A stretch of 64,000 nucleotides of DNA from Candidatus Parcubacteria bacterium. Its GTDB lineage: Bacteria; Patescibacteriota; Minisyncoccia; UBA6257; HR35. The position numbers were made by a program, and so were the translations under genes. The notes beneath the pieces are model-generated. The model was not told the origin of the DNA and searched no databases. It saw nothing but the letters and a program-made list of their open reading frames with translations. Position 1 is the stretch's first letter; each line of letters begins with the position of its first letter. This document shows positions 14,308 through 59,426 of this stretch, one piece after another. The stretch spans positions 324,523-388,522 of the forward strand of contig BPJI01000001.1 of NCBI GenBank assembly GCA_026004535.1. The letters are read 5' to 3'.

Positions 14308-16004
14308 TGATTTTACCAGAAGAGGAAATAAAAAATATTTTAATAAAAAGAGGGTTGATTGATGAAACTGTTTGGGAAGAAGCAAAAAAAGATGCCGAGA
14401 AATTAAATTTAACGACTATTGAAATTCTAATTAATCGTAAGATCATTGACCTAGAATTTTTTTACAACGTTTTAGCCGAAGAACTAAAAGTCCAACGAGC
14501 TCCACTTAAAGGAGTAAATATTCAGCCATCTGTTTTAGCTTTGGTTCCTGAGAAGATTGCCTTTGAAAAAAAACTAATCCCTTTCGCTTTAGAGAATAAT
14601 ATTTTAAAAGTTGCTATGGTGAATCCTCTTGATATCGAGACAATTAATATTTTAGAGGAAATCGCTAGTCATCAAATAGAGCCTTATCTAGCCACACCTC
14701 AAGAAATCCAATATGCTCTAGTTAATTATCAAAAACTCTATAAGGAAGAATATGAAAGATTGCTTAAGTCAGAAATTCCTCAGGTTACTACTTTAGCAAC
14801 TGAAACCAATGTTGTTCGTTTAGTTGATAATATTTTGGGTTACGCAATTAGTACTAATGCTTCAGATATTCATATTGAAGCCTTGGAAGAAGAAACTCTA
14901 ATTCGTTTTCGAATTGATGGTATTTTAAGAGAGATGATGAAATTGCCTAAAAGTTTGTTAGATCCGATTATTGCTAGAATTAAGGTTTTAAGTAATTTGC
15001 CTTTAGATGAACATTTTCGACCTTTAGATGGAAGATTTAAAGCTAAGGTTGGTGATTTTGAATTTGATATGAGGGTAGCAATTATGCCAACAATTTATGG
15101 CGAGAAGGCTGTTTTAAGGGTTTTGGCTGGGGCAATCAAGCCAACATCTTTAGAAGAATTGGGGGTAAATGAAGAAATTGAAAAAATAATTATGGCAGCA
15201 ATCAGAAAAACTTTCGGGATGATTTTGGTTACTGGTCCGACCGGAAGTGGTAAAACAACAACTTTATATACTATTATCAATATCTTAAATAATCCAGGAG
15301 TTAATATAGTTACGATTGAAGATCCAGTTGAATACGCCATTCCAAGAGTTAATCAAACCCAGGTTAATTTAAAAGTTGATTTGAATTTTGCCACTGCTTT
15401 AAGAGCATTTTTAAGGCAGGACCCAGATATTATAATGGTTGGCGAAATTAGAGATAATGAAACTGCTGAAGTTGCGGCTAATGCTGCTCTAACTGGTCAT
15501 TTGGTTCTTTCGACTTTGCACACCAATGATGCACCAACTGCTGTCCCGAGATTGGTTGAATTAGGGGTACTTCCTTATTTAGTTGCTGATAGTGTTATTT
15601 TGACAATGGCTCAAAGATTAGTCAGAAAAATTTGTCTTAATTGCATAGTTTCTGAAGAAATAACTCCAGCTCAAAAGCAAATAATTTTAGAGCAATTAAG
15701 ATACTTAAAAATTCCTGAAGAAGAAATTAGAGCTTACGAAGAAAGATTGCCCCAGTTTATTTATCGAGGCAAGGGTTGTTCAATTTGTGGCAATACTGGT
15801 TATGTAGGTCGAACTGGTATATTTGAAGCAATGATGATGAACGATGAATTAAAATATATGATTGCCAGCAGAGAATTAAATTCAGAAAAAATAAAACAAA
15901 TTGCCAGAAAGTCTGGTTATCGAACAATGTTTGAAGATGCTTTAGATAAAATTTCTGTCGGTATAACAACAATTGAGGAAGCATTAAGAGTTATTAGGGA
16001 ATAA
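14307..16004 (+). CDS. pilB: type IV pilus assembly ATPase (GspE/PilB family)
   Basis: N-terminal GSPII_E_N-like region, Walker A VTGPTGSGKTTTLYTII, motifs …MVGEIRDNETA… and the C-terminal CxxC…CxxC. Confidence 0.9.
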   Translation: MILPEEEIKNILIKRGLIDETVWEEAKKDAEKLNLTTIEILINRKIIDLEFFYNVLAEELKVQRAPLKGVNIQPSVLALVPEKIAFEKKLIPFALENNILKVAMVNPLDIETINILEEIASHQIEPYLATPQEIQYALVNYQKLYKEEYERLLKSEIPQVTTLATETNVVRLVDNILGYAISTNASDIHIEALEEETLIRFRIDGILREMMKLPKSLLDPIIARIKVLSNLPLDEHFRPLDGRFKAKVGDFEFDMRVAIMPTIYGEKAVLRVLAGAIKPTSLEELGVNEEIEKIIMAAIRKTFGMILVTGPTGSGKTTTLYTIINILNNPGVNIVTIEDPVEYAIPRVNQTQVNLKVDLNFATALRAFLRQDPDIIMVGEIRDNETAEVAANAALTGHLVLSTLHTNDAPTAVPRLVELGVLPYLVADSVILTMAQRLVRKICLNCIVSEEITPAQKQIILEQLRYLKIPEEEIRAYEERLPQFIYRGKGCSICGNTGYVGRTGIFEAMMMNDELKYMIASRELNSEKIKQIARKSGYRTMFEDALDKISVGITTIEEALRVIRE

Positions 16005-16013
16005 GAGATTAAA

Positions 16014-17261
16014 ATGACTGTTTATCATTATAAAGCTTATGATTATAAAGGTAAGTTACATACTGGTAATTTATTTGTTCCATCCGAAGAAGAAGCAATT
16101 GCTTTTTTGCTGAGAAATAATTTGACACCAATTGAAGTTAAATTAGTGCCACAAAGTCTGTTTAGGCAGTTTTTATTAAAATTATTTTTTCGTATAACTT
16201 TTTCTCAAAAATTATATTTACTCAGAAGCTTATATTTAATTTTAAAATCAGGGCTTACCTTAGATAAGGGTTTAGAGGTTTTAATCAGAGAAGCAAAGGG
16301 TGGAGTCAAAGATTTTCTTTTTTATTTAGATTACAATTTGCAAAGAGGTGAGCCAGTTTATCGAACTTTTGCTGCTTTCCCTCAATTTTTTTCTCAAGTT
16401 GAAGTTGAGACGATTAGGGCTGGTGAGATTTCTGGTAATTTAGTTGGTAACTTAGAGAAATTGGCCGAAAATTTAGAAAGGCAAAGAGAGATTAAAAATG
16501 AAATAATTTCTAATATTATCTATCCAGCCATTGTTTTGGGTTTAGCTTTTGGTGTTATTATTCTTTTGATCACCTTTGTTATGCCACGAATTAGTGTTTT
16601 ACTTACTCAATTAACATCAAAACCTCCTTTGCTTACCCGCATTTTAATTGGCGCCAGTACCTTTGTTAATAATAATCTTTCTTTAGTTACTACAATATTG
16701 ATTTTAATTATTTTGACTTTTATTTTTGTGGTTTCGCTCAAAAAAACTCGAAAAATATTATTTAAATTTTTAATAAGACTTCCGGTTCTATCTAATCTTT
16801 ATTATGCCTTAGCTTTGAGTCAATCATTTTTTATTTTAAGATCTTTATTGAGTTCTGGTTTAAATCTAACTCAATCTTTAAAATTGGCTGCTGATGCTAG
16901 TTTTCATCCATATATTCGCGAAAGTTTTTATGATGTTGAAAAAGAATTAAGGGCAGGGAAAAAATTAGGTGATGCCCTTTTGTTACAGGAAAAAATTCCT
17001 GTTTTTGTCAGTAGTATTTTAAGTGTTGCTTCAGAAGCTGGATTTTTGGAAGAAACATTAAGAATAATGGAAAATTATTATCTAGAAGAATTTCGAGCAA
17101 CAGTTAGAAACTTTTTGAATTTACTTCAGCCAGCACTTTTAATTTTTGTCGGCGGTATTGTTGGTTTTGTGGCGATTGCTGTTTTGGTTCCTATTTATCA
17201 ACAAATTTCTCAACAGCTTCAGTTTCAAGAAGGTCGCGGTCAAATACCCGGAGAATTATAA
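16014..17261 (+). CDS. pilC: type IV pilus inner-membrane platform protein (GspF/PilC family)
   Basis: 415 aa with two repeated GspF-like domains and three TM segments; canonical position after pilB. Confidence 0.85.
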   Translation: MTVYHYKAYDYKGKLHTGNLFVPSEEEAIAFLLRNNLTPIEVKLVPQSLFRQFLLKLFFRITFSQKLYLLRSLYLILKSGLTLDKGLEVLIREAKGGVKDFLFYLDYNLQRGEPVYRTFAAFPQFFSQVEVETIRAGEISGNLVGNLEKLAENLERQREIKNEIISNIIYPAIVLGLAFGVIILLITFVMPRISVLLTQLTSKPPLLTRILIGASTFVNNNLSLVTTILILIILTFIFVVSLKKTRKILFKFLIRLPVLSNLYYALALSQSFFILRSLLSSGLNLTQSLKLAADASFHPYIRESFYDVEKELRAGKKLGDALLLQEKIPVFVSSILSVASEAGFLEETLRIMENYYLEEFRATVRNFLNLLQPALLIFVGGIVGFVAIAVLVPIYQQISQQLQFQEGRGQIPGEL

Positions 17262-18700: not shown

Positions 18701-19996
18701 ATGATGAAATCAGAGGAGATAAGAAAATTATTTTTAGATTATTTTAAAGCAAGAGGACATAAAATTTTGCCTTCATCGTCATTAATTCCAATTGATGATC
18801 ATTCAGTTTTATTAACTACTGCTGGAATGCAACAGTTTAAAAAATATTATACTCGCGAAAAAGATCCGATTAAAGATTTTGGTACTCAAAGAACAGCAAC
18901 AATTCAAAAATGTTTTCGTACCACCGACATTGAGGAAATTGGTGACGAAACTCATTTAACTTTTTTCGAAATGCTAGGTAATTTTTCTTTTGGTCCTGTT
19001 GGCAAAGATGATCCTCAAAATTTTGGCAGTGATGGTTATTTTAAACGAGCAGCAATCTATTGGGCTTATGAATTTATTAAAAATTTAGATTTGGAAATTG
19101 ATTATGTAACTGTTTTTGGTGGAGAGAGAGATGTACCTTTTGATGAAGAAAGCTATAAGATTTGGAAAGAAGTTGGTTTCTCTGAAGAAAAAATTTTAAA
19201 AAAGGGCAGGGAAGATAATTTTTGGGGGCCAACAGGAGACGAAGGTCCTTGCGGTCCGACAACTGAAATTTATGTGAATAATGTCGAAATTTGGAACTTA
19301 GTTTTTAATGAATATTATCAAGATAAAAATGGAAATTTAAAAAAATTAGAATTTCCTGGAGTTGATACGGGGATGGGATTTGAAAGATTGATGAAAGTTT
19401 CGCAAAATGTACCAACAATTTTTGAAACTGATTTTTTTCAACCGTTAAAAGAAGTTTTGGATCAATTAACAAACAAAGATGATATTCGAAGAAAAAGAAT
19501 AGTTTTAGATCATATTCGGGGGAGTGTTTTTTTGATTGCTGATGGTCTTTATCCCTCAAATTTAGAGAGAGGCTATGTTTTAAGAAGAATTTTAAGAAGA
19601 TTAACTTTGAATTTAAAATTTTTAGATATCAAGATTGAAAAGATTGAAAATATGATTAAAGCAGTTATTGAAAAATATTCTCCTTTTTATCCAGAACTAA
19701 AAAATTATGATAAAATAAAAACAGTAATTTTTGAAGAAATTATAAATTTTGAAAGGACTTTAAACATTGGCTTGAGAGAATTTGAAAAAACAATTAAGGG
19801 AAATGAAAATGATGAAATTTTAGCTGAAAAATTGTTTTTGCTTTATACGTCTTATGGTTTGCCATTAGAAATTAGTAAAGAACTATTAAAAGATAATGGT
19901 CTTGGTTGGACTGAGAAATCTCAGCAAGTTTTTGATGAATTATTTAAAAAACACCAAGAAATATCAAAGGGTAGAATTAGCGAGTTAGCGAGTTAA
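18701..19996 (+). CDS. alaS: alanyl-tRNA synthetase, catalytic N-terminal domain only (431 aa; no editing or C-Ala domains in this ORF)
   Basis: …SSSLIPIDDHSVLLTTAGMQQFK…, …CFRTTDIEEIGDETHLTFFEMLGNFSFG…, …WGPTGDEGPCGPTTEIY…. Confidence 0.75.
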   Translation: MMKSEEIRKLFLDYFKARGHKILPSSSLIPIDDHSVLLTTAGMQQFKKYYTREKDPIKDFGTQRTATIQKCFRTTDIEEIGDETHLTFFEMLGNFSFGPVGKDDPQNFGSDGYFKRAAIYWAYEFIKNLDLEIDYVTVFGGERDVPFDEESYKIWKEVGFSEEKILKKGREDNFWGPTGDEGPCGPTTEIYVNNVEIWNLVFNEYYQDKNGNLKKLEFPGVDTGMGFERLMKVSQNVPTIFETDFFQPLKEVLDQLTNKDDIRRKRIVLDHIRGSVFLIADGLYPSNLERGYVLRRILRRLTLNLKFLDIKIEKIENMIKAVIEKYSPFYPELKNYDKIKTVIFEEIINFERTLNIGLREFEKTIKGNENDEILAEKLFLLYTSYGLPLEISKELLKDNGLGWTEKSQQVFDELFKKHQEISKGRISELAS

Positions 19997-20006
19997 CGAG
20001 TTAATA

Positions 20007-21512
20007 ATGAATAAATTTTATTTATATCTTAACAAAGAGGATGAATTGGGAGAAATAATTGAAAAGATTAAAAGAGTGAAAGATAAAGAGATTATTTTAG
20101 TTGTTCCGGAAAAAACAAAAGCCTTATCTCATTCTACTAATTTTGAACTTTTTAAAAAAGAGATTCAAAGTTTAGATAAAAAAATTTATTTTAATACTGA
20201 TGACGAAAAGATAAAAAATTTAGCTAGACAAAATAAATTTCCAATCTTTTTAGAAGAAACAGAAGAAAGAATTTTTGATATTAAGCCACCTAAAAAAAAG
20301 AAAGAGTCCGAAGGAGAAATAACTTTTCAACCAACGAAGCCTAAATTAATATTTAATCTCAAAAAATTTTTCATCTATTTTTTAACATTATTTAGCTTAT
20401 CGATTTTAGGTTTTGTTGGTTTTCGACTTTTTCAAACACAAGCAGAAATAACGATTGAAACTCAAAAAACTCTTTATGATTTAAATGAAGTCATAACCTT
20501 AAAACAAGACCAGACTTTGCCGGATTATGAAAATAAGATTTTGCCTGCTAAATATTTTGAAGTAGATCTAATTAAAACAGAAACAATCAAAACAACTGGT
20601 CGAGTTTTTACTGATGAAAAACCTTATTTAAAAGTTATTTTTCTAAATTATTTAGAAAGAGAAATCCCATTAGTTGCTGGAACTAGGCTTAGTTTTGAGG
20701 GTAATCTCTTTAAAACAACAGAAAGAATAACTATTCCTTCGGCTAAAGATAATCAGCCTGGACAAAAATCTGTTTTAGCTTTACCAGTTAACTTAAAAGA
20801 TGAGACTTTGAAAATTAATAAGGGCGCTGATTTGAAAATTGTTGCCTGGGAAGAAAGTAGAGTAAAAACAGAGGATGGTAGTTTATTTATTGATGTTATT
20901 AAAGCTAAAGTCGAAGAAGATTATGATTATGGTGCTGTTACTAAAATTGGTTCAGTTGCGCCTCAGGATATAACTAATGTTAAATTAGCCCTAGAGGATT
21001 CATTGAAAAAAGCAGTTGCTAGTGATTTAGCCTTAAAAAATCCAGAGACATTTTATCTTTTCGAGCCAGATTTAGTTAACATAGAAATTACTAACATTTC
21101 ACATAATGTTGGAGATAAAACTGATCAGATTTCGGCAACTGGTAAAGCGACTTATGAGACAATGAAGACAAACAAAAAAGACTTTGATGATTTTGTTAAA
21201 AATTTGATTAATCAAGAAATTTTACGTCAAGAAAAAAAATTAATCATCAGTCAGTTAAGGATTGATAAAATTGAACTTTTAGATTTTGATGCTAAGAGAA
21301 AAATAATGACAATAGGTGTTAAGGGGCAAGCGATTTTGGTTCCTGATCTTGTTCCTGAGACTCTTAAAACAGCACTTCAAGGAAAAACAATTGAGGAAAC
21401 GAGGGATTATTTTAAGATTCCTGGTGTTGATAAAGTGACAATTAAAATTTTTCCTAATTGGAAAGAAAAATTACCCTCAGATCCTCAAAAAATTAAGATT
21501 GTCATAAAATAG
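20007..21512 (+). CDS. hypothetical protein (501 aa, one internal TM segment)
   Basis: Long uninterrupted ORF with ordinary codon usage. No motif recognised. Confidence 0.5.
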   Translation: MNKFYLYLNKEDELGEIIEKIKRVKDKEIILVVPEKTKALSHSTNFELFKKEIQSLDKKIYFNTDDEKIKNLARQNKFPIFLEETEERIFDIKPPKKKKESEGEITFQPTKPKLIFNLKKFFIYFLTLFSLSILGFVGFRLFQTQAEITIETQKTLYDLNEVITLKQDQTLPDYENKILPAKYFEVDLIKTETIKTTGRVFTDEKPYLKVIFLNYLEREIPLVAGTRLSFEGNLFKTTERITIPSAKDNQPGQKSVLALPVNLKDETLKINKGADLKIVAWEESRVKTEDGSLFIDVIKAKVEEDYDYGAVTKIGSVAPQDITNVKLALEDSLKKAVASDLALKNPETFYLFEPDLVNIEITNISHNVGDKTDQISATGKATYETMKTNKKDFDDFVKNLINQEILRQEKKLIISQLRIDKIELLDFDAKRKIMTIGVKGQAILVPDLVPETLKTALQGKTIEETRDYFKIPGVDKVTIKIFPNWKEKLPSDPQKIKIVIK

Positions 21513-21593
21513 AAATTGTGCTATAATTATAACAGCTTCATAGCTAACCAGCTTCGTAGCTTCTTTAGAATTTTTGGTCGGAGTTAGAAAAGA

Positions 21594-36252: not shown

Positions 36253-36984
36253 ATGAGATTATTTATTGTTCCAACGCCGATAGGTAATCTAAAAGATATC
36301 ACTTTGAGAGGAATTGAGGTTTTAAAACAAGTTGATTATATTTTTTGTGAAGATACAAGAAGAACAAAAATTTTGCTTGATCATTATGAAATTAAAGACA
36401 AAAAATTAATTTCTTATTTTGCTCCTTTTGAAGCAAAGAAAATTCCACAACTTTTAGAAATTTTAAAAAGAAATGAGGCTGCTTTAGTTGTTGATTCTGG
36501 AATGCCAGTTATTTCTGATCCTGGTTATAAATTGATTAAAGCTTGTTTGGAAAATAGTATTGAAATTGAAGTTTTACCAGGGCCAACTGCTTTTTTGACT
36601 GCTTTGATTGGTTCAGGTTTGCCTTTAGATAAATTTTTATTTTTAGGCTTTTTACCTAAAAAAGGATTGGAAAATTATTTTCGAAAAATAAAAGACTTAG
36701 AAGTAACAATTGCTTTTTATGAATCACCAAAAAGAATATCGAAAACTTTAGAAGTTATTAGAAAGGTTTTTGGTAATTGTCAAGTTGTTATTGCTCGAGA
36801 GGTTTCTAAAATTTATGAAGAATATTTAAGAGGAGATATTGAAGAAATAATTGAAAAATTAAAAGATAAAAAATTAAAAGGAGAGATAACCGTTATAATA
36901 CGCAGAACTACGCATAACGAACGCAGAACTAATAAAAATAGCTTCATAGCTTCCTATCAGCTTCAAAGCTTCTCAGCTTCATAG
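36253..36984 (+). CDS. rsmI: 16S rRNA (cytidine1402-2'-O)-methyltransferase
   Basis: MRLFIVPTPIGNLKDITLRGIEVLKQVDYIFCEDTRRTKILLDHYEI… The C-terminal about 30 codons read through CGCAGAACT and GAAGCT periodic repeats. Confidence 0.8.
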   Translation: MRLFIVPTPIGNLKDITLRGIEVLKQVDYIFCEDTRRTKILLDHYEIKDKKLISYFAPFEAKKIPQLLEILKRNEAALVVDSGMPVISDPGYKLIKACLENSIEIEVLPGPTAFLTALIGSGLPLDKFLFLGFLPKKGLENYFRKIKDLEVTIAFYESPKRISKTLEVIRKVFGNCQVVIAREVSKIYEEYLRGDIEEIIEKLKDKKLKGEITVIIRRTTHNERRTNKNSFIASYQLQSFSAS

Positions 36985-37047
36985 CCTCTTTTTATGTATC
37001 TGCTTAATTGTATTTCGCCTTTAAATTTTAGCACAATTTTCCACATC

Positions 37048-37075
37048 TTGACATCATATTTTTTCTATTTATAAT
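37048..37075 (+). promoter_or_regulatory. sigma70-like promoter (TTGACA-16-TATAAT) for the pilin-adhesin gene
   Basis: TTGACAtcatattttttctatTTATAAT. Identical copy at 57789-57817. Confidence 0.5.
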
Positions 37076-37081
37076 TAAATT

Positions 37082-37402
37082 ATGAATAAAAAAATGAATA
37101 AATCCTTCACTTTAGTTGAACTCTTAGTTGTCTTAGCTCTAATAGCTATCTTAGCTACTGTCTTAATTGTTGTCATTAAGCCAGCAGATATCTTTAAAAG
37201 AGGTAGAGATAGTCAAAGAACTTCAGACCTTAAAAATCTTGAAAAAATATTTGACCTTATTCTTTTTGAAACTCAAGGCACCTTTTCTGAACTTCAATAT
37301 GCTTCCTCAAATGTTGTCTATATCTCTCTTCCTGATACTTCATCAACTTGTGGTCAATGGATAAGTCAATTACCACAGCTTCCTTCAGGCTGGTCATATT
37401 GA
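37082..37402 (+). CDS. type IV pilin-like module (prepilin N-terminus), terminated by an in-frame TGA that is followed by 296 further sense codons
   Basis: MNKKMNKSFTLVELLVVLALIAILATVLIVV…; TGA at 37400-37402. Confidence 0.7.
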   Translation: MNKKMNKSFTLVELLVVLALIAILATVLIVVIKPADIFKRGRDSQRTSDLKNLEKIFDLILFETQGTFSELQYASSNVVYISLPDTSSTCGQWISQLPQLPSGWSY

Positions 37403-38290
37403 TGCTCAGCAACTCCAACAAATATTGATGGTACTGGCTGGATTCCTATTCCTTTTAATCAATTTTCAAGCATTAATCTTTCTAGACTTTTCATTGATCC
37501 AATCAATAGACCTCCATATTACTATGCATTTGTTGCTGGAGGAAGTTATGCTCTCTATGCTCAATTAGAAAATCCTCAGTCTCAAGCCTCAAAAACAGAC
37601 AATGATAATTATCCTCATCTATTTTCAGTAGGAACAAATAAAAGACTCATTGATCAAGCTCAAGGACTTGTAGGGTATTGGTCTTTTGATGAAGGAAGTG
37701 GAAATATTGCTAATGATTATTCAGGAAACAATAATAATGGAACACTCTATAATGGTCCTCAATGGGTTGATGGTAAAGTAGGTAAAGCTTTAAGTTTTGA
37801 TGGAGTGGATGATTATGTGAATGCATGGACTGGCCCCGGCTCGCAAATTACCGATAGAGTTACTGTGAGCGCGTGGGCTCGTAATGTGGGAGCTCCTTCA
37901 GCGTTTAATACGATTATTGCTAATTATGCTTCGAATGCGGGATGGGCAATACGCACCGCAGAATCGGGGATTAGTTACCTGCATTTCTTAGGACGATCCG
38001 GCGCAGGCGAAGTGCGAGTTATCATTGCTTCCGAGGCGGAAACATTTAATGGTGCATGGCACCATGTCGCATTTACGGTGTCTGGAGGCGTTGCGAGAAC
38101 ATATCTTGACGGTGGTTTTGTTGCTTCCGCGTCTGGTGTTGTGAATTTGCAACCAGCGACGACTACTTTGATTGGGAAGGGTCATATAGGAGGACTTGGC
38201 TTCTGGAACGGTCTTATCGACGAAGTTCGTATCTACAATCGCGCTTTATCAGATCAAGAAATAAAGGTTCTTTATGAAGCAACTAAATAA
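37403..38290 (+). other. in-frame, stop-free continuation of the pilin ORF after the TGA: LamG/ConA-like lectin (jelly-roll) domain
   Basis: Same frame as 37082. No start codon for about 400 nt. …NGAWHHVAFTVSGGVARTYLDGGFVASAS…GLIDEVRIYNRALSDQEI… is a LamG-type signature. Confidence 0.5.
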
Positions 38291-38488
38291 CCACGGATAT
38301 ACACGGATAATAAATAACCACGGATTTACACGGATAACATAAAGGATAGATACGGATACTAATTAATGTTCGTATAAGTTTGTGTATAGTTCGCATAAAG
38401 GGTACGTATAAAACACTATAGCGTCTGAAACGTCCTTTCTGATTTTAGTGACTTTAATGATATATGATTAATAAAAGAATATGTTTTG

Positions 38489-38560
38489 CGCCCCTAACCG
38501 GATTCGAACCGGTATTTCCAGCCTGAGAAGCTGGTGTCCTAACCATTAGACGATAGGGGC
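38489..38560 (-). tRNA. tRNA-Glu (anticodon CTC)
   Basis: Reverse complement GCCCCTATCGTCTAATGGTTAGGACACCAGCTTCTCAGGCTGGAAATACCGGTTCGAATCCGGTTAGGGGCG. Confidence 0.8.
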
Positions 38561-38569
38561 AATAACTTC

Positions 38570-38800
38570 GCACACACGCCTACGAGCACCGGCACTCAAC
38601 TTGCTCCAGCGGCAAGTTGGTGCCTCGGTTCTCGGCTCGAAAACTTTGCCATCTGCTAAAGCAGACTGGCAAAGACCGAGCTTTTCGAGCCTCCGAAACG
38701 TGCTCTACGGCGTGGTGCTCGGCAAAATTTTTCGCCGAACTCGCTCGCCAACAAACATGGCATGGCGTGGTGCGAGGTAATATCGGGACATACGATGTCA
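38570..38800. ncRNA. GC-rich (about 58%) highly structured island; candidate unidentified structured RNA
   Basis: Nested perfect helices GGCACTCAACTTGC/GCAAGTTGGTGCC and GGCTCGAAAA…TTTGCCA…CTGCTAAAGCAG…TGGCAAA…TTTTCGAGCC. Three mutually overlapping ORFs on both strands argue against coding. Adjacent to tRNA-Glu. Confidence 0.3.
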
Positions 38801-38906
38801 CGATATTTTTTCTTAATATTTAGACACGCACGTCTTAAATTATACAATAAAACTCACAATTCGTTAACTCGTTAATTAATTAAATTCGTTAATTAATTAA
38901 ATTATA

Positions 38907-40919: not shown

Positions 40920-40985
40920 ATTGTGTTATAATTTAGACTATGAAGCTATGAAGCTGCGAAGCTTTGAAGCTGAAAAGCTTAATAT

Positions 40986-41558: not shown

Positions 41559-43319
41559 ATGCCAAAATATATTTTTGTTTGCGGAGGGGTAATGTCAGGA
41601 GTAGGTAAGGGAATCGCTACTGCTTCGATTGCTAAAATTCTATCTTGGCATGGTTATAAAGTAACCTGTCTTAAGATTGATCCTTATGTCAATGTTGATG
41701 CTGGAACGATGAATCCTTTAGAACATGGTGAAGTTTTTGTTTTGAAAGATGGGACTGAATGTGATCAAGATATGGGACATTATGAAAGATTTTTAAATCA
41801 AGAATTGACAAAAGTAAATTATATGACAACCGGAAGTATTTACTTATCATTAATTCAAAAAGAAAGAAGTTTGTTTTTTGATGGAAAGTGTGTTGAAGTT
41901 GTGCCTCATGTTCCCTTAGAAGTTATTGGCAAAATTAATCAAGCGCAAAAATTGACTCAGGCTGAAATTGTGATTACTGAAATTGGTGGTACAGTAGGTG
42001 AATATCAAAATTTACTCTTTCTAGAAGCAGTAAGAATTTTAAAACTTAAAAATCCAAAAGATGTTCTTTTGGTGTTAGTAAGTTATTTGCCTTATCAAGG
42101 AGAAGGAATGGAACTTAAAACAAAACCAACTCAATATTCTATTCGTACACTTAATTCTGCTGGTCTTCAGCCTGATTTTGTTTTAGCCAGAGCTCAATTT
42201 CCTTTAGATGAAAAAAGAAAAGAAAAAATTTCTTTTAATTGCGGAGTACTAAAAGAAAATATAATTTCTGCTCCTGACGAGCATGTTGTTTATAAAATTC
42301 CTTTGAATTTTGAAAAAGAAAAATTGGGCATAAAAATTTTAAATAATTTTGGTTTGAAGCCTAAAAAAGCTCCACCAGATAGTGATTATAAAAAATGGAA
42401 AAATCAAATTGAAAATATTAATCAATTGAAAAAACAAGTAAATATTGGTATTGTAGGTAAATATTTTAAGACTGGAGATTTTGTTTTAGCTGATGCTTAT
42501 ATTTCAGTTATTGAAGCAATTAAACATGCAAGTTGGTTTTTGGGTTATCGGCCAAAAATTGTTTGGTTAAATTCAGAAGAATATGAAAAAGATAAAATAA
42601 AATTAGAGGAATTGAAAAATTATGATGGTATTATTATTCCTGGTGGTTTTGGCTCTCGAGGTATTGAAGGAAAAATTTTAGCGATTAAATATTGTCGGGA
42701 AAATAAAATTCCTTTGTTTGGTTTATGTTATGGTCTTCAACTTATGATTGTTGAATTTGCTAGGAACGTCTGTGGTTTAAAGAATGCTCAGACAACCGAG
42801 GTAAATCCTAGAACAAAATATCCGGTTATTGATATTTTGAAAGAACAAAAGAAATTATTAGAAGAAAAACTTTATGGAGGAACAATGAGATTAGGAGATT
42901 GGGAATGTGAAATAAAAAGAGGTACGATTGCTTGGAGAGCTTATGTAGAACTACGCAGAACTGACACAGAACTTAGCAGAACTGATACAGAACTAGGCAG
43001 AAGATATCAAAAAAATATTTCTGTTAGTTCTGCATTGAGTCAGTTTGTTCCACGCGTCTTAAAAGTTGTAGAAAGACATAGACATCGTTATGAAGTTAAT
43101 CCTAAATATCATAAAATTTTACAAAAGAAAGGTTTTGTTTTTTCGGGTACATCGCAAAAGGATTTATTAGTTGAAATCGGGGAATTGCCACAAAACATTC
43201 ATCCTTTCTTTTTGGGAACCCAATTTCATCCAGAATTGAAATCAAGATTTTTACATCCTCATCCATTATTTGTTGAGTTTATTAAACAGAGTATAATTAG
43301 TAAAAATGAGTATTTATGA
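41559..43319 (+). CDS. pyrG: CTP synthase
   Basis: MPKYIFVCGGVMSGVGKGIATASIAKIL…, GATase …GLCYGLQLM…. In-frame 21-nt x2 repeat insertion at about 42937-43010. Confidence 0.9.
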   Translation: MPKYIFVCGGVMSGVGKGIATASIAKILSWHGYKVTCLKIDPYVNVDAGTMNPLEHGEVFVLKDGTECDQDMGHYERFLNQELTKVNYMTTGSIYLSLIQKERSLFFDGKCVEVVPHVPLEVIGKINQAQKLTQAEIVITEIGGTVGEYQNLLFLEAVRILKLKNPKDVLLVLVSYLPYQGEGMELKTKPTQYSIRTLNSAGLQPDFVLARAQFPLDEKRKEKISFNCGVLKENIISAPDEHVVYKIPLNFEKEKLGIKILNNFGLKPKKAPPDSDYKKWKNQIENINQLKKQVNIGIVGKYFKTGDFVLADAYISVIEAIKHASWFLGYRPKIVWLNSEEYEKDKIKLEELKNYDGIIIPGGFGSRGIEGKILAIKYCRENKIPLFGLCYGLQLMIVEFARNVCGLKNAQTTEVNPRTKYPVIDILKEQKKLLEEKLYGGTMRLGDWECEIKRGTIAWRAYVELRRTDTELSRTDTELGRRYQKNISVSSALSQFVPRVLKVVERHRHRYEVNPKYHKILQKKGFVFSGTSQKDLLVEIGELPQNIHPFFLGTQFHPELKSRFLHPHPLFVEFIKQSIISKNEYL

Positions 43320-48905: not shown

Positions 48906-50660
48906 AAATTCCCTTAAAAAATAAACAAAAGCAATTTTATACGCCACGGATTCACGCCGATTTTTATAATCCACGGATTTACGCGGATTTAGAACGGATT
49001 TACGTGGATTATTATCATTAGGATTTAGGCGGATGTTGTTTCCGGGTAGTATTCTTTCTTTTTCATAAAAGCTATGAATTTTTTTAGCTAAATCAATTAA
49101 ATAATCAGTGAGAAGATGAGGTCTTTTTTCTTTGTAAATTAAATAAATTAAATCTTGTAATTGATGAACCTTTCTTAAAATTATTTTAGCTGAGTCAATG
49201 TCTTTAATTGATAAGAAAACTTTTTGCGCATCAATTATTCGTGTTAATTCGCTTTTTATTCGTGTTAATTCGCGTCCTTTCTCCAAAATACTATTTAACC
49301 TTGCACAAGCATATTGAATATACCAATAAGGATTTTCCTCTGATTCTTTTTTGGCTAAATCTAAATCAAATTCAATCATAGCCTCAGGAGATTTTTGTAA
49401 AAAGAAAAATCTAACAACTCCTGAGTCAATTTCGTCAATTAAGTCTTGTAAAGTGATAAAAACTCCTCTTCTTTTTGACATTCTTAAATATTCTTGTCCT
49501 TTTTTAAGATGAACAAATTGATAAACTATCGGTAAAAATTGGTAATCTTTAATGCCAAAAATTTTTAAAGCGGCTCTCAATCTGCGAGTGTGATCAAGAT
49601 GGTCACTAGCAACAATTAAAATTTCTATCTTATTTTTCTTAAGAAAAAATTTATGGTAATAGTGTAAAATATCAGAGAAAAAATAAGTTGGTTCACCATT
49701 TTGTTTAATTAAAACTTCATCTTTATCTTCACCCAATTTTGTTAAAAGCAAAAACAAAGCTCCATCTCTATTTTCAATTAATTTTTTTCTTTCAAAAATT
49801 CTTAGAACTCTTTTATCTAAATTTTTTTTATAGAGATCCGTTTCAAAGAAGTACCAATCAAAATTAGTGCCAAAATTTTTTAAGGCTTGTTTAATGAGAT
49901 TCTTTAAAATATAATCAGCTACTTTTTTGCCAATTTTTTCTAATATTACAGACTCATGCTGATTTAGAATTGTTTTTATTTCTTCACTCAACTTTTCAGC
50001 AATCTCTTTTAGATATTCACCTTGATAAAAATTGCTTTCCCAATCAAGATAACCTAAATGAGCCAAGACTGTTTTGGCTAAAATCTCAATTTGATTTCCG
50101 CGATCATTAACGTAATATTCCCTAGTAACTCTAAATCCAGCTAATTTTAAAATGTTTGCCAAAGTATCTCCTAAAACAGCACCTCGAGCATTTCCTAAAG
50201 TTAAAGGCCCAGTAGGATTAGCGGAGACATAATCAATATTTAATTTTTGTTTTCGACCATAATTTTGTTGGAAAAATTTTTCTTTATTTTTATAAATTGC
50301 TCTAAATGTTTTTAAAAGCTGATAATCAGAAAGCCAAAAATTTAAGTAATTATTGACAATCTCGATTTTTTTGAAAACCAAGGATTTTCGCGGATTTAAA
50401 ACGGATTTATGCGGGTTATTATCAGCGTTGATCCTTTTTGAAATCTGTGTAAATCTGTGTTTAATTTTATCAATAATTATTTTTTCTTTTTCCGGAGCAA
50501 ATTGTTTTAAAAGAAAAATTAGATTGGTTGAATAATCACCTAATTTTTCATCATCAATTAAAAATACTTTTAATTTTTGTAAAATTTTCTCTGCTTTTTC
50601 TTTATCGATTTCTTTTCTAATTAAATTTTTCAATTTTTGCTCTAAAAGATAAAGATTCAT
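48855..50660 (-). CDS. argS: arginyl-tRNA synthetase
   Basis: …YVSANPTGPLTLGNARGAVLGD…. In-frame CACGGAT-repeat insertions near both ends (48930-49040 and 50380-50420). Confidence 0.85.
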   Translation of the reverse strand: MNLYLLEQKLKNLIRKEIDKEKAEKILQKLKVFLIDDEKLGDYSTNLIFLLKQFAPEKEKIIIDKIKHRFTQISKRINADNNPHKSVLNPRKSLVFKKIEIVNNYLNFWLSDYQLLKTFRAIYKNKEKFFQQNYGRKQKLNIDYVSANPTGPLTLGNARGAVLGDTLANILKLAGFRVTREYYVNDRGNQIEILAKTVLAHLGYLDWESNFYQGEYLKEIAEKLSEEIKTILNQHESVILEKIGKKVADYILKNLIKQALKNFGTNFDWYFFETDLYKKNLDKRVLRIFERKKLIENRDGALFLLLTKLGEDKDEVLIKQNGEPTYFFSDILHYYHKFFLKKNKIEILIVASDHLDHTRRLRAALKIFGIKDYQFLPIVYQFVHLKKGQEYLRMSKRRGVFITLQDLIDEIDSGVVRFFFLQKSPEAMIEFDLDLAKKESEENPYWYIQYACARLNSILEKGRELTRIKSELTRIIDAQKVFLSIKDIDSAKIILRKVHQLQDLIYLIYKEKRPHLLTDYLIDLAKKIHSFYEKERILPGNNIRLNPNDNNPRKSVLNPRKSVDYKNRRESVAYKIAFVYFLREFLGFALSLINIKPIKKL

Positions 50661-53600
50661 TGAAACACTCTTTTAAAAGTGTCATTTAATATTTTTTGAT
50701 AATCTTTCTTACCTTCAGCAACTAAATCCATTGCCTCTTCTAATTTTATAGTAAATTCTTCAGCAACCAAATCTTTGTGTTTTTTAATCAAATAATTATA
50801 AATCTTTTCTCCTAAAGAAACGGGAATTAAATATCCCGAACGATTGAGAACATATTTTCTATCAATTAAAGTTTGAATAATTGTTGAATAAGTTGATGGT
50901 CTACCTAAGCCTCTTTTTTTCATTTCATCAATAAGCTCACCCTGGGTATAATGATATTCTTTTGGTACTTTTTTAATTTTTAAATTCTCAACTTTAAATT
51001 TATCTTCAATTAAATTAAAAATTTTTATATTTTTAAAGAATTGAAGATGATTGCCTTCAGTAATTTCAACAAAAGCCTCTTGTGTTTGCTTATATAAAAC
51101 AAATTCATGGTTACTTGTTTTAAGGATTATTTCAATTTCTGTTTTTTTGCCTTTGCTTGGTTTCATCTGAGAAGCGATAAATCTATTAAAGATCAATCCG
51201 TAAAGCTGTAAGTGTTTTTTAGTCAAATTTTTTTGTTCTAAAATCATACTTTCAATAAGATCTTGGACATCTAACGGTTTTGTCGGTCTTATTCCTTCAT
51301 GAGTACCAATTTCTCCCCAAGCTCGTTTATAAAACAAATCTTTTAAATTCTTTCTTTCTAAATATTCATAGGCAACATTACGACCGAATTCAGAAACGAA
51401 AACAGAATCAGTTCGATGATAAGTAATTAATCCTTGTTCAAAAAGGTCCTGAGCTAATCTCATTGTTATTGGAGCTTCAAATCTAAAAAAACTATTAGCA
51501 TCTTTTAAAAGATTACTTGTATCATAAGGAGGTAGGGGATTAATTGTTTCTTCTTGGGTTCTGTTAAATTTTATTTCAATTTCTAATTCTTGGTTTTTAA
51601 AGGCTGTTTTTATTTCTTTAATAATGTCTTCATTTTCTAAGTAAAAATAAAGAGGAGTAAGTTTTTGGGAATCATTGGGTTGATTTATGCTAACATTAAC
51701 TAAATAATGCTTATTTTTAATTCTTTTTTCTTTTTCTAAAATCCAACCTAAGACTGGAGTCTGAACTCTGCCGGCAGAAAGATTGAGATTTTTAAAATGT
51801 TGTTGAATTTCTTCACTTAATTTAAAACCAATCCAACGATCAGAAATTCTTCTTAAAAGTTGAGCCTTGACTAAATTAACATCAACATCTCTTGGTTCTT
51901 TTATTTTTTTAATGAATTCAGTTTTGGTAATTTCATGAAGCTCTATTCGTTTGATGTTTTGATTATAGGGATAAAGATAGGCAAATAAATCAAAAGCTAT
52001 TTTTTCGCCTTCGGTATCAGGATCAGTGGCTAAATAAATTTTATCAACCTCAAAAGCAATTTTTTGTAAATTTTTTATTAATTCTTGTTTACTAAGGAAA
52101 TTTTGAGAATTACAAACAGGACATTCATTTTCGTTTAAACTTAAGTGGCGCTTACAATTCTGACAAATTTTTAAGGGTTGAAAAACAGGCACAAATTCCC
52201 CTTTTTCTTTTTTGACACCATAATAACCATCTTGATGAGTTAAATCAGTAAAGTGCCCTAAAGTAGCGCAAATATTTAAATGTAGATTTCCTAAGGAAAC
52301 CTCATAAAAAATAATATTAGCCTTAATTCTCCTAGCTGGCTTGCCAAAAAAGTTAGCGATCGTTTTTGCTTTTGTCGGCGATTCAACTAAAACCAAAGCA
52401 GTTTCAATTGGATCTTTAAGAGTAAACTCTTCGCCAGTTAAGACCCTTTCAACAATTTTGCGATCTTTATCAATTTCTTCTAAAATTTTTGTTAAATTAA
52501 TTTCACTAGCATTTTTAAAATTTGCTTCATAGCCTAAGATTTTCAATTTATCTTTTAAATGATTTAAAACTTTTTCATTTTCAGCTAAAATTAAAGCTAA
52601 TCCTTTGGTAAGACCCAGAGGAAAAAGTCGCGAAGTTCTACCTGATGCTTGAATATAGCCACGAGGATCAGAAACAACTAAATAATAATTTAAATTATTA
52701 CCCGGATCATCACTAGATATATTACCCGGATGATTACCGGATAGATGGTTGTTTTCCTTGGAATTTATATTAGTTTTTACTCCATTATTGTTCGCATTGG
52801 TTCGCGTATAGTTCGCATCAGTCTGCGTCATTAGAGTTATTCTTGGATGTTTTTTAATTTTTTCAATAATTTCTTCATCTTTTAAAAATTCTTCAAAAGT
52901 TCTTTTTATTGGTTCGATTTTTTCCTTTAAATTTTTATCAGCCAGAATTGCTTCTTCTTTGAGAAAAGATATTTTTTTAAGAAAATTCAAATTTCTTTCA
53001 ATTAACGATTTTTCATCGACAGTTTCTCTTAATGTTAGGCCTAAAAGAAAAAGATGTAAAGGAGAATAAGATACTTTTAATGGAATCTTAAATTTTGGCA
53101 CACCCAAAAACAAGGCATATCTTACTTTTTGGGGTAAATCAATTCCTCGAGTTAAGGGATTTCTAATATTACTAAAGCCGACAACAACTTGAATTTCATT
53201 TTCTAAAAAAGCTTTTTGATTTTTGGTATTAAATTTTTCATACGAAACAGCATTTATGCTATTTTCTTTTAAAAAATCAATATAATTATTTAAATCTTCT
53301 TTACGAAAATCATCATTTAAAAAAACAAAACCACCAGGACCTAATTTTTTTAGCCAATAGATTGATCTTTTGATTAACGCGATTTTTTGCGAACTATCGG
53401 AAGGAGCGGAAACGAACGCAGAACTATCGGAATGAGCGGAAGAATTGTTTCCGTTTGTTCCGTTTATAATTTCATACACTTCTTCAATGTTTCTTAAATA
53501 AGTTGTTGCTGAGCCAATTTCAAATCCTAAAAGTTCTCGAAAAAGGGCAATTTTTTTTGTTTTTGGAGTTAAAGTGGCTGAAGCAGCAATAATAAGACCC

Positions 53601-54355
53601 TTCTCATCTTTGTTAATATCCATAACTTCAATTGCAGCATAATCTTCTCTATTTTTGGCTTTTCTTTTTTTGTCAATAATTTGGATTGCTCTTTGGATTT
53701 CTTCATCTTTGAATTTAATTAATTTCAAAACTTTATCAATATTTTTTGGTTGTCTGATTAAAGAATCGGCGTCATCAACAAAAACCAAATCAAAATTTTT
53801 AGGAATAATGTCAAAATTTTTATGAAGAAAGTTGGCCGTAGTAAGCAAAATATCAAAATCTTCATTTTTTAATAATTCTTTATCTTCTTTTTCTTTAATG
53901 ATTAAAATTTTTTTATCAGATTTTATATTTTTTAATTTTTTCTCAATCTCACGCAATAAAATTTTTGAAGGGACTAAATAATAAACTTTGCCTGGAAGAA
54001 AATGAGAAATAATGTTACCAAAAGTTGTTTTACCAATTCCGGTAGGAGCAATTATGGAAAAAGATTCTCTTTTTAAGACTCTTTTTGCCCAATAAAGCTG
54101 AAGTCGAAGTGGTTGATGCCCAGTATTTTCTTTAAAAAAATTTATGAATTCTTTTAATTTCTGTAAAACTATGTAATCTTCATTAAAATTCTCCAAGTCC
54201 TCTTTAAGATCGAGATTCTCAGTTATCTTAAATAGGGTTTTTTTAAATCTTTCATAATCTTTATTACACAAGCCATAATTATAGATTTCCTCAAAATTAG
54301 CATCATTTCTATCTATCGGACAAATTTCTAAATAGCGAACGTTTAATTTTTCCAT
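50657..54355 (-). CDS. rgy: reverse gyrase (N-terminal helicase-like domain fused to a type IA topoisomerase)
   Basis: …LQLYWAKRVLKRESFSIIAPTGIGKTTFG…, …DLVFVDDAD…, …ALVLVESPTKAKTIANFF… (TOPRIM), Zn finger CQNCKRH…CPVC. 1232 aa. In-frame repeat insertions at about 52690-52830 and 53390-53460. Confidence 0.8.
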   Translation of the reverse strand: MEKLNVRYLEICPIDRNDANFEEIYNYGLCNKDYERFKKTLFKITENLDLKEDLENFNEDYIVLQKLKEFINFFKENTGHQPLRLQLYWAKRVLKRESFSIIAPTGIGKTTFGNIISHFLPGKVYYLVPSKILLREIEKKLKNIKSDKKILIIKEKEDKELLKNEDFDILLTTANFLHKNFDIIPKNFDLVFVDDADSLIRQPKNIDKVLKLIKFKDEEIQRAIQIIDKKRKAKNREDYAAIEVMDINKDEKGLIIAASATLTPKTKKIALFRELLGFEIGSATTYLRNIEEVYEIINGTNGNNSSAHSDSSAFVSAPSDSSQKIALIKRSIYWLKKLGPGGFVFLNDDFRKEDLNNYIDFLKENSINAVSYEKFNTKNQKAFLENEIQVVVGFSNIRNPLTRGIDLPQKVRYALFLGVPKFKIPLKVSYSPLHLFLLGLTLRETVDEKSLIERNLNFLKKISFLKEEAILADKNLKEKIEPIKRTFEEFLKDEEIIEKIKKHPRITLMTQTDANYTRTNANNNGVKTNINSKENNHLSGNHPGNISSDDPGNNLNYYLVVSDPRGYIQASGRTSRLFPLGLTKGLALILAENEKVLNHLKDKLKILGYEANFKNASEINLTKILEEIDKDRKIVERVLTGEEFTLKDPIETALVLVESPTKAKTIANFFGKPARRIKANIIFYEVSLGNLHLNICATLGHFTDLTHQDGYYGVKKEKGEFVPVFQPLKICQNCKRHLSLNENECPVCNSQNFLSKQELIKNLQKIAFEVDKIYLATDPDTEGEKIAFDLFAYLYPYNQNIKRIELHEITKTEFIKKIKEPRDVDVNLVKAQLLRRISDRWIGFKLSEEIQQHFKNLNLSAGRVQTPVLGWILEKEKRIKNKHYLVNVSINQPNDSQKLTPLYFYLENEDIIKEIKTAFKNQELEIEIKFNRTQEETINPLPPYDTSNLLKDANSFFRFEAPITMRLAQDLFEQGLITYHRTDSVFVSEFGRNVAYEYLERKNLKDLFYKRAWGEIGTHEGIRPTKPLDVQDLIESMILEQKNLTKKHLQLYGLIFNRFIASQMKPSKGKKTEIEIILKTSNHEFVLYKQTQEAFVEITEGNHLQFFKNIKIFNLIEDKFKVENLKIKKVPKEYHYTQGELIDEMKKRGLGRPSTYSTIIQTLIDRKYVLNRSGYLIPVSLGEKIYNYLIKKHKDLVAEEFTIKLEEAMDLVAEGKKDYQKILNDTFKRVFQ

Positions 54356-57345: not shown

Positions 57346-57465
57346 CTCATTCAGCTTTACAGCTTCCTAGCTTCACAGCTTATCAGCTTCAAAAAATTAT
57401 AATATAATTATTATATCATAGAAGCTTTAAAGCTATGAAGCTTGGAAGCTGATAAGCTATTTTTT

Positions 57466-57536: not shown

Positions 57537-57788
57537 ATTGAGTAATTAACATTTTTACCATTTTAGTTTGTTCCACATCTTCCCTGTCCGTTTCCTTCTG
57601 TTTAGTATATGTCGGAAGGAGCAGAAGCGGACGCAGAACCATCGGAAGGAGCAGAAGAATTATTTCCGCTTGTTCCGTATCCTTTTCTGTTTATTCCGCA
57701 TTTTCCATGTCCGTTTCCGTTCATTTCGTTTTTTCCGTGTCCGCTTCTGTTCATTTCGCCTTTAAATTTTAGCACAATTTTCCACATC

Positions 57789-57817
57789 TTGACATCATAT
57801 TTTTTTCTATTTATAAT
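57789..57817 (+). promoter_or_regulatory. sigma70-like promoter (TTGACA-17-TATAAT), duplicate of 37048
   Basis: Identical upstream 60 bp to the 37082 gene. Confidence 0.5.
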
Positions 57818-57823
57818 TAAATT

Positions 57824-58144
57824 ATGAATAAAAAAATGAATAAATCCTTCACTTTAGTTGAACTCTTAGTTGTCTTAGCTCTAATAGCTATCTTAGCTAC
57901 TGTCTTAATTGTTGTCATTAAGCCAGCAGATATCTTTAAAAGAGGTAGAGATAGTCAAAGAACTTCAGACCTTAAAAATCTTGAAAAAATATTTGACCTT
58001 ATTCTTTTTGAAACTCAAGGCACCTTTTCTGAACTTCAATATGCTTCTTCAAATGTTGTCTATATCTCTCTTCCTGATACTTCATCAACTTGTGGTCAAT
58101 GGATAAGTCAATTACCACAGCTTCCTTCAGGCTGGTCATATTGA
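57824..58144 (+). CDS. type IV pilin-like module (identical to 37082..37402) ending at the same in-frame TGA
   Basis: 100% identical N-terminal module; TGA at 58142-58144. Confidence 0.7.
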   Translation: MNKKMNKSFTLVELLVVLALIAILATVLIVVIKPADIFKRGRDSQRTSDLKNLEKIFDLILFETQGTFSELQYASSNVVYISLPDTSSTCGQWISQLPQLPSGWSY

Positions 58145-58972
58145 TGCTCAGCAACTCCAACAAATATTGATGGTACTGGCTGGATTCCTATTCCTTTTAA
58201 TCAATTTTCAAGCATTAATCTTTCTAGACTTTTCATTGATCCAATCAATAGACCTCCATATTACTATGCATTTGTTGCTGGAGGAAGTTATGAGTTAACA
58301 GCAGCTTTAGAAGTTAAGACGAATAAAGGAGATGGGTCAATTTCTGCTAATGATGGGGGAGATGATGATTATATTTATGAAAAAGGAACTAATTTAAATT
58401 TAACTCCTTTAGTTGTTCAAGGTAGACTTCTCACAAATTCTATTTACGCTGTTAGTGGTAGTTGTGATAACTCTACTTATTGTGGTTATATGGATAATCA
58501 TAGTGAAGCTGATGCTATTAGAAATTTTCCAGCCAACATCTGTAAAAAATATGTTGATAAATTATATTGGGGTTCAGTGTGTGATAATACAAACCCTGAA
58601 AGTGGAGTTAGGAATTATTTTTATTCACGTTTTAGATTTTTGTTTGTTCCTGATGTAAGTGGAACATGGTATTTTGCTGTTGATAGTAATGATGGAGCGG
58701 AATTAATATTAAATAAAGATGATTCTGATAACGACCACACAAAACACACTTTAATTGCTTCATGGTATGGTGTGCATGGTTGGTGTAATTGTCAAAATGC
58801 AAGTGGCACGATTGATATGATTGCAGGTCAAGGATATTGGTTTGATTATATTCAAGAAGAATGGAGCGGAGTTGAAGCGGCCGTTTTATGGGTAAAAAGG
58901 CCAGGAGATGTTTGGAAAGTTTTAAGTGTTACTAATTTTCCTAATCAAATATTTGCAAGGCCTGCATATTAG
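58145..58972 (+). other. in-frame stop-free continuation after the TGA: PA14/GLEYA-like carbohydrate-binding domain
   Basis: Same frame, 276 codons with no stop. …VSGTWYFAVDSNDGAELILNKDD… resembles PA14. Confidence 0.45.
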
Positions 58973-59426
58973 TATAAAAATACAAAATAGCTCATCAGCT
59001 TTATAGCTTCCAAGCTTTTTTAGCTTACCATTTTTTTAGTTTTATAGAAAACATAAAGGTACATATAAAATGCTATAGCATCTAAAACATCCCTACACAT
59101 AAAAAGACAAAAGTCTACTGCTACGTAGCAATAGAGAATTGAACCAGTTTTTATTTCTACTATTTAAATACGATCGTATTAAGTTAGGAGAATTAATAAA
59201 TATAATGACGTGCGATATCCAGATGTTGATTCATCATCGAATATTTGGGACATCGCAGGTCTTAAATTATTTTCCGTATCATCTTCCTTTATTCCGTTTT
59301 TTTCGTATTTATTTCAGTTTGTTCCATATCTTCCATTTTCATTTCTCTCTGTTTGGCTGAGAAATTGACATTTTTTCCAGATTCTAGATTTTTGTTTTTT
59401 AGAAAGCTTTCAGGATAATTAAATTA

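Follow-up and report, generated by a model that had tools for sequence, protein, structure and literature searches.

A premature TGA shared by paralogous pilin–lectin genes of a hot-spring Parcubacterium is probably a nonsense allele spread by gene conversion

A stretch of 64,000 nucleotides (nt) from the genome of a Candidatus Parcubacteria bacterium, KatS3mg096 (GenBank contig BPJI01000001.1, positions 324,523 to 388,522; we call the whole of this stretch "the window"), carries two genes in which a type IV pilin module is interrupted by a single in-frame TGA, and beyond the TGA the reading frame simply runs on. Our question is a narrow one: what is that TGA doing there? The first of the two genes, copy 1, is on the + strand, as are all the features of both genes described below. 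Its ATG is at 37082 and its protein starts MNKKMNKSFTLVELLVV; the truncated reading frame of 106 amino acids (aa), at 37082..37402, opens with a class III signal peptide, continues through the alpha-1 helix into the pilin head, of which it holds the first strand and a loop, and is closed at codon 107 by the TGA at 37400..37402, which stands in the context UAU UGA UGC, directly before an invariant cysteine, Cys108. Past the TGA, the frame is open for 295 sense codons, up to the TAA at 38288-38290. A preliminary, sequence-only reading of this DNA had reported 296 open codons; the open frame is there as described, and the number has to be lowered by one, as it counts the stop. The same reading had found no start codon for about 400 nt after the TGA, and we find the same: over 134 codons the frame has neither ATG nor GTG nor TTG, and the first of them is the GTG at 37805. 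At the base composition of the window, the chance of a stop-free run of 295 codons is about 6e-11, which is why we regard the part of copy 1 that lies 3' of the TGA as real coding sequence.

The two sides of the TGA read as the parts of one polypeptide. The N-terminus matches PF07963 (N_methyl) with an E value of 7e-7, and TIGR02532 scores above its cut-off; the signal motif is KS/FTLVELLVVLALIAILATVLIVVI, with Ser at residue -1 where Gly is usual, and the leader, the F-T-L-x-E motif with its Glu5 and the hydrophobic helix of about 20 residues that one looks for in a type IV pilin are all present. At the far end is a linker followed by a LamG/ConA-like lectin module (37652..38290, closed by the TAA), to which a Pfam profile, a structural model and a fold search all point. 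Laminin_G_3 is matched over its whole profile by residues 240-395 of the conceptual readthrough product of copy 1 (E 8e-25), and the lectin domain that had been proposed for this part of the frame is thereby confirmed. Between the two lies the rest of the pilin head, residues 108-190 (37403..37651), in the same frame and with no start codon, as judged from the alignment, from stand-alone homologues and from the strands of the model. The conceptual peptide across the TGA of copy 1 would be SGWSY-(W/R/C/G)-CSATPTNIDGTGWIPIPF.

The model is an AlphaFold2 prediction for an intact paralogue, P0123 (KatS3mg096_301), made with 54 sequences (predicted local distance difference score, pLDDT, 84.7; predicted template modelling score, pTM, 0.80). 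It has the long alpha-1 helix (11-64) on a beta-sheet head (strands 78-84, 105-109, 148-152, 156-161 and 180-184) that defines a type IV pilin, and then a LamG jelly roll at about 196-394. Residue 107 lies in the second head strand of the model, 105-109, one residue before Cys108; the helix and the first strand precede the TGA. Cys90 and Cys108 are invariant in the alignment, and Cys90 is the likely disulfide partner of Cys108. Stand-alone pilin homologues are 184-191 aa long. The prepilin module thus continues past the TGA, at which it had been supposed to end, and the pilin domain extends to about residue 190. Because the TGA falls inside the pilin head, the termination product of copy 1 is half a pilin and not a plain pilin, and the earlier suggestion that one gene yields a regulated ratio of pilin to pilin-adhesin fusion cannot be upheld. 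With the C-terminal module as a query, Foldseek returned carbohydrate-binding lectin modules (AbnA domain 4, the lectin domain of a trans-sialidase and the Hc-N domain of a clostridial toxin); from this likeness of fold and from the profile match, glycan binding is a putative function of the LamG module.

Could the break nevertheless be a gene fission, with 106 aa that work as a short pilin in their own right and a downstream part made as a protein of its own? Short pilins do exist: Geobacter PilA-N is a precedent, and the pilins that matched best in the PDB are chains of Geopilin domain 1. We consider fission very improbable all the same. The start-less 134 codons after the stop argue against a second translation product, and so does the one ATG that overlaps the stop (TGATG), which can be read off the sequence as belonging to a different frame that is closed after 8 codons; together they led us to reject an internal restart. 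The break, moreover, removes the invariant Cys108 together with four of the five head strands, and the intact paralogues described below show the unsplit form to be the working architecture.

The second gene, copy 2, repeats the beginning of the first and nothing else. Copy 1 and copy 2 share a 5' module (37012..37550 and 57753..58292, respectively) that comprises a promoter match and pilin codons 1-156; over 539 nt the two modules differ at two places, one of them synonymous (TCC/TCT) and the other an indel of one T in the promoter spacer, and BLAST, with the ragged 5' edge included, gives 98% identity over 563 nt. Downstream of the module the copies are unrelated. The truncated frame of copy 2 (57824..58144, with its TGA at 58142-58144) encodes 106 aa identical to those of copy 1, and its downstream frame (58145..58972) continues for 275 open codons through the remaining pilin head, which is of a different subtype, into a PA14-like module, for which the Pfam match is weak (E 4.3e-5; 23.8 bits, where the cut-off is 24). 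Both copies have a perfect match to a sigma-70-type promoter, TTGACA-16 nt-TATAAT (12 of 12 positions, a match to the consensus only), at 37048..37075 in copy 1. This candidate promoter ends 6 nt upstream of the ATG at 37082, and therefore the mRNA would be leaderless, or translation would begin at the second ATG (37094); the 102-aa form that starts there is the one that Prodigal/DFAST calls in several of the paralogues. In the annotation, copy 1 is KatS3mg096_368 (as the 102-aa form), its GTG-started LamG fragment is the neighbour _369, and copy 2 is, by accession spacing, KatS3mg096_389.

Before asking what this particular TGA does, one has to know what TGA means in this genome, and the answer is that it works as a stop. 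It closes 13 of the 46 well-supported open reading frames (ORFs) of the window, among them those for reverse gyrase, DnaB, CTP synthase and GyrB, and the Pfam matches of the conserved genes that end in TGA reach their expected C-termini. A global reassignment of UGA, which the sequence-only reading had already thought unlikely, is excluded by these gene ends together with the full-length profile matches that run up to them. Among the window's ORFs, the pattern of a long ORF, a lone TGA and a long open frame without a start is found in the two pilin genes only; the one other same-frame pair (44431-44865/44866-45744) is two genes, the second of which starts at an ATG of its own, where its ROK domain also begins.

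What, then, stands at this codon in other organisms? A scan of species-representative genomes gave 55 loci, and the motif around the codon could be located in 29 of them, all from other genomes. The homologous codon is a sense codon in all 29 (AGA, CGT, CGC, CAC, CAT, CAA, AAA, AAG, GTA, TCC, GCC or ACA), with neither TGA nor any other stop among them, and the residues encoded are mostly Arg, His or Lys, with Gln, Val, Ser, Ala and Thr as well. When 14 close homologues are aligned, the site, which lies between an invariant Tyr and the invariant Cys, is Arg in 11, His in two and Lys in one; a stop occurs there in none of about 25 close homologous proteins, and many of the homologous ORFs run uninterrupted for about 400 aa. 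Because the homologous codon is sense in every other genome examined, the stop is confined to this one. A single base change turns AGA or CGA into TGA, and a codon count for the window has AGA as the commonest Arg codon (381 of 653) and CGA as the second. The supposition that one pilin–LamG gene has been interrupted by a single TGA is thus well founded as a statement about its ancestry. Of the three explanations that had been left standing, namely programmed readthrough, selenocysteine and a nonsense mutation, it is the nonsense mutation that is best supported, given the sense codon in these 29 loci and in paralogues of the same genome. That explanation had been tied to two signs: the orthologues should have an ordinary sense codon with no conservation of TGA, which is what we see, and the coding signal downstream should have decayed, which is not what we see, for the modules are still intact.

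The paralogues are the heart of the matter. KatS3mg096 was recovered from Katase hot-spring sediment (52 C, pH 7.2) by PacBio HiFi sequencing (N50 10.5 kb) and metaFlye assembly (PMC9671151), in a paper on metagenome-assembled genomes (MAGs) that does not discuss these pilin genes (PMC9671151). Its protein sequences include at least 11 paralogues with an almost identical N-terminal module. Six of these 11 end at ...SGWSY (_036, _272, _368, _389, _447 and _898), and the other five read ...SGWSYRCSATPTN..., with Arg at the site (_085, _126, _171, _293 and _301, of which _171 is more divergent); the identity of the stop codon and the integrity of what follows it were read in DNA at the two window loci, and the Arg or stop status of the other nine was taken from proteins. 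KatS3mg096_301 is a complete, uninterrupted pilin–LamG protein of 394 aa and the sole copy among the 11 that is intact from start to end. It is identical to the conceptual product of copy 1 through ...SFDGVDDYV, save for Arg107 and one other residue. The remaining four Arg copies are shortened at other places, to 168, 214, 223 and 304 aa. Since _301 is intact and the others are cut in various ways, we conclude that the unsplit pilin–LamG protein is the working architecture and that most members of the family are broken. In the annotation, gene callers split the stop copies into a "hypothetical protein" of 102 or 106 aa and a LamG fragment of about 160 aa.

These copies have probably not evolved independently of one another. 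In the protein sequences, residue 40 (Ser or Asn) and residue 107 (stop or Arg) occur in all four combinations: Ser with the stop in P0125 and P0127, Asn with the stop in P0126, Ser with Arg in P0122, P0123 and P0001, and Asn with Arg in P0121. If the stop had a single origin, the four combinations would require exchange between copies; recurrent mutation is the alternative. Breakpoints of the mosaic recur after ...AGGSY and after ...SFDGVDDYV, and it is exactly at the latter motif that _171 ends and _301 diverges. The adhesin modules at the 3' end vary among paralogues, between LamG variants and PA14-like modules, and in SKYG90, another hot-spring MAG, paralogues share patches of 92-99% identity. 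Compared side by side, then, the paralogues are mosaics, in which intact and broken genes coexist.

The LamG module of copy 1 has a seam of its own. Its GC-rich core (37802..38245) has a GC content of 0.49-0.51 against 0.32 for the window, a GC content at third codon positions of 0.40 against a gene mean of 0.19 (standard deviation 0.036, maximum 0.26), and CGN, not AGA, as its codons for Arg; the flanking parts, at the conserved motifs ...FDGVDDYV and ...RIYNRA, are native in composition. By these compositional marks the core is probably a segment recombined in from a donor of higher GC content, for which the protein search offered no close candidate, the best outside homologue being 38% identical. 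A diversity-generating retroelement acting on the core was considered and rejected, as there is no template-like repeat of 37802-38245 anywhere in the window.

Might the stop be an artefact, or a minority variant, produced where the consensus or its polishing went wrong in a repeat of many copies, or where metaFlye collapsed strains into one? The typical error of HiFi data is an indel in a homopolymer and not a substitution. There is some reason to ask, as the module is present 11 times, both alleles occur in the assembly and a metagenome consensus can mix strains. Yet the stop is found at six separate loci, and the window copies differ at a nearby synonymous site, so that they are not simply collapsed, while HiFi reads of better than Q20, with an N50 of 10.5 kb, are long enough to tie every 0.54-kb module to flanking sequence that is unique (PMC9671151). 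With reads that span the repeat module and an error that is not the usual one for the method, the TGA is very probably real, and we put little faith in an artefact.

Nor is a stop at codon 107 the only way in which members of this family come to be broken. One homologue in another genome (L002) has an in-frame stop at a conserved Trp of the LamG module (...AITLAA*VRV...), another (L001) has several frameshifts, and P0017 and P0018 are frameshifted after ...PFSNF. Because the disruptions are both frequent and varied, a birth-and-death family or a family of cassettes fits better than a dedicated recoding site.

A further kind of break is seen in pilin homologues in other genomes, some of which carry a GC-rich insert of about 58 nt with two hairpins, an in-frame TAA and a poly-A tract of 4-6 nt. 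The insert (L058 5351-5408; L059 ~5640-5705; L060 ~1095-1160) always lies between the pilin codons NIDG(T/E) and GW(I/L)PI, ten codons after the site of the window's TGA, and it cuts the homologues P0021, P0023, P0025, P0026 and P0028. Comparison with a paralogue of the same genome identifies the element as an insertion, and one of its base pairs shows a compensatory change between loci; in L059 and L060 a second hairpin insert separates DPINQP from PYYY. The element resembles the palindromic elements of the Rickettsia type or a site-specific mini-element. It is absent from the window, and a metagenome scan with a 20-mer found one further instance only.

We can now return to recoding. Genes with programmed readthrough and genes for selenoproteins do look like copy 1 in having a single in-frame UGA and an open, homologous frame downstream of it; unlike them, copy 1 has a UGA that is not conserved, no selenocysteine insertion sequence (SECIS) or stimulatory structure, a basic residue and not Cys at the site in homologues, and a stop context usual at true gene ends in the window. 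A SECIS-like hairpin had been suggested as something to look for after the TGA, and it did not materialize: RNA folding in three windows around and after the UGA gave minimum free energy (MFE) z-scores of about -0.2, no better than shuffled sequence, and a permissive Rfam scan of 36900-38900 returned neither SECIS nor any other element. Selenocysteine at this UGA is attractive in one respect only, which is that a selenylsulfide could in principle arise from a UGA beside a Cys. Set against this are the Arg, His or Lys of the homologues, the lack of Cys at the site in every aligned protein and in all 29 loci, the missing hairpin and the nine tRNAs of the window, none of which is a tRNA-Sec or a UGA suppressor; nor, to our knowledge, are the genomes of this group (~0.6-0.9 Mb) known to carry the selenocysteine machinery. 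We give the selenocysteine explanation practically no credence.

Leaky or programmed readthrough deserves more thought. Near-cognate decoding of the UGA (by tRNA-Trp, for example) would yield a little full-length pilin–adhesin from each stop copy, and UGA is the leakiest of the bacterial stop codons. Two of the stop copies at least, and probably a third, have an intact frame 3' of the stop, and six have kept the same stop. Minor pilins of the modular kind work in low copy number, at the tip of the pilus (PMC9934059). A trace of readthrough could suffice for such a tip-located pilin, which is needed once per filament. Even so, we judge readthrough improbable: the stop is conserved neither in the 29 loci nor in the 25 or so close homologous proteins, five of the 11 paralogues encode Arg at the site, four of them in an otherwise identical module, no structure follows the UGA, and other members of the family are broken by unrelated lesions. 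Three genes of the window truly end in the context UGA-U, which favours termination in E. coli. Finally, with half a pilin as the terminated product, the logic of two useful products from one gene fails.

The window also encodes a type IV pilus assembly ATPase (T2SSE/MshEN, 14307-16004, + strand) and a platform protein (T2SSF, 16014-17261, + strand), both identified by domain search; a prepilin peptidase was not seen within the window. The closest known parallel is PilC of Streptococcus sanguinis, a modular pilin that Foldseek also recovered (7oa8). In _301 and in homologues from other genomes, as in PilC, a class III signal peptide, a pilin and then a ConA-like/LamG module follow one another in one polypeptide (PMC9934059, PMC8179133), the single chain that is the mark of a modular pilin and that the TGA divides in the window copy. 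The differences are just as plain. No sequence relationship to PilC is detectable beyond the fold class, the pilin moiety is full-sized here (~190 aa) with no Ig-like spacer, and the family has been amplified to at least 11 copies, of which those in the window are stopped inside the pilin moiety.

How would such a state have come about? We think it probable that the TGA is a nonsense allele of an Arg codon that has been spread by gene conversion through a family of modular pilins, and that the genes bearing it are either pseudogenes or "off" cassettes, with about as much to be said for the one as for the other. A one-base change of AGA or CGA at codon 107 would have created an ordinary premature stop. 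Gene conversion would keep the promoter and the first ~156 codons of the paralogues near-identical, with 3' adhesin modules that differ, and the stop allele, copied from locus to locus along with the 5' module, would in this way have reached the six copies that now carry it. Termination would leave a 106-aa fragment without Cys108 and with little of the pilin head, so that no adhesin module would be made from a stop copy; we infer that the stop-bearing copies have lost their function. That conversion between copies was the vehicle is what the mosaic of shared and unshared residues suggests.

Several things sit uneasily with this account. In both window copies, the frame beyond the stop is open throughout, over 295 and 275 codons, and its modules look functional, and the _447/_448 pair (P0135) also keeps at least its LamG tail intact; in pseudogenes of long standing, further lesions would be expected. 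A null allele in six of 11 copies is also a high share for something that is merely tolerated, and it is at two loci only that stop codon, Arg codon and downstream state have been read in the DNA itself. The intact 3' modules fit a recent arrival of the stop by conversion, a reversible off state with the modules still under selection, or low readthrough.

One of these possibilities can be stated in a stronger form, which is that stop and Arg at codon 107 make up a recombination-driven on/off switch for pilus-tip adhesins. On this proposal, all of the ~11 loci would be transcribed from the same promoter, only those holding Arg would translate their adhesin module, and conversion of the 5' module would re-assort the tip adhesin on display (LamG variants, PA14-like modules, the LamG module with its foreign-derived core) in an ultra-small bacterium that is probably attached to a host. 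In a weaker form of the same proposal, low-level readthrough of UGA could set a low dose of each tip adhesin. We regard the switch as a minority possibility, one that we advance tentatively. It invites comparison with the pilE/pilS-type cassettes of Neisseria and with similar families of surface-protein cassettes that gene conversion drives, with which the family has in common many copies that combine shared conserved segments and variable, adhesin-determining ones, mosaic paralogues with a four-gamete pattern, and a majority of copies that cannot make the full product. It departs from them in that the conserved part is here the 5' end, which includes the promoter match, so that the silent copies are not promoterless, and in that silencing is by a point stop or by other lesions.

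The remaining features of the window can be told briefly. Short repeats of two families are dispersed between the genes, flanking those for the pilins as well as many others: hairpins of the CCACGGATATACACGGATAA type, terminator-like on the minus strand (38291-38337, 6197-6321, 63635-63704, 48929-48988 and 50431-50471), and repeats of the AGCTTCATAGCTTCC type (36955-36991, 40942-40973, 57363-57454, 21530-21566 and 58983-59019). Short direct repeats of the GCAGAACT type lie at 42954-43004 within the CTP synthase ORF (41559-43319), where they are translated in frame as RRTDTELSRTDTELGRR, and at ~36901-36984, the 3' end of an RsmI-like methyltransferase ORF (36253-36984), where they are translated as RRTTHNERRTNKNS...; repeat elements appear to have inserted into the coding sequences of both genes. 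At 38561-38860, adjoining tRNA-Glu(CTC), is a GC-rich island (0.55 against 0.32) whose predicted fold is very stable (MFE z-scores of -8.4 on one strand and -10.3 on the other) and for which Rfam has no match up to an E value of 10; it is a candidate for a structured RNA of a new type in an AT-rich thermophile. Alanyl-tRNA synthetase appears to be split, with one ORF (18701-19996, 431 aa) matching positions 1-429 of the 552 of tRNA-synt_2c; an adjacent ORF of 501 aa in another frame (20007-21512) has no Pfam match at E of 1e-4 or below. A full-length reverse gyrase of 1232 aa (50657-54355, - strand), with helicase, Toprim and topoisomerase IA domains, is unusual for Parcubacteria and consistent with thermophily in a 52 C spring. 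Upstream of the pilus machinery genes, a protein of 795 aa (6832-9219) combines RCC1 repeats and DUF2341 with a Peptidase_S74 domain (endosialidase chaperone) at its C-terminus, an arrangement of domains that suggests a tail-fibre-like surface protein.

What does all this amount to? As a recoding candidate the locus does not hold, and it is no evidence for readthrough or selenocysteine in bacteria of the Candidate Phyla Radiation. Modular type IV pilins are known, and what we describe is a further member in an amplified and mostly broken family, whose pilin–LamG architecture is hidden in the databases by the splitting of its genes in annotation; literature that links pilin, LamG and Patescibacteria was looked for in a library of papers, and nothing relevant was found. 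Still, in a genome of less than 1 Mb, 11 loci or more are given over to modular pilins whose adhesin modules are interchangeable and whose 5' ends are kept identical. Should the stop allele indeed be shuffled among them as a switch, we know of no earlier cassette-like system of pilin variation in this group, and it would give an episymbiont a simple way to vary the organelle by which it attaches.

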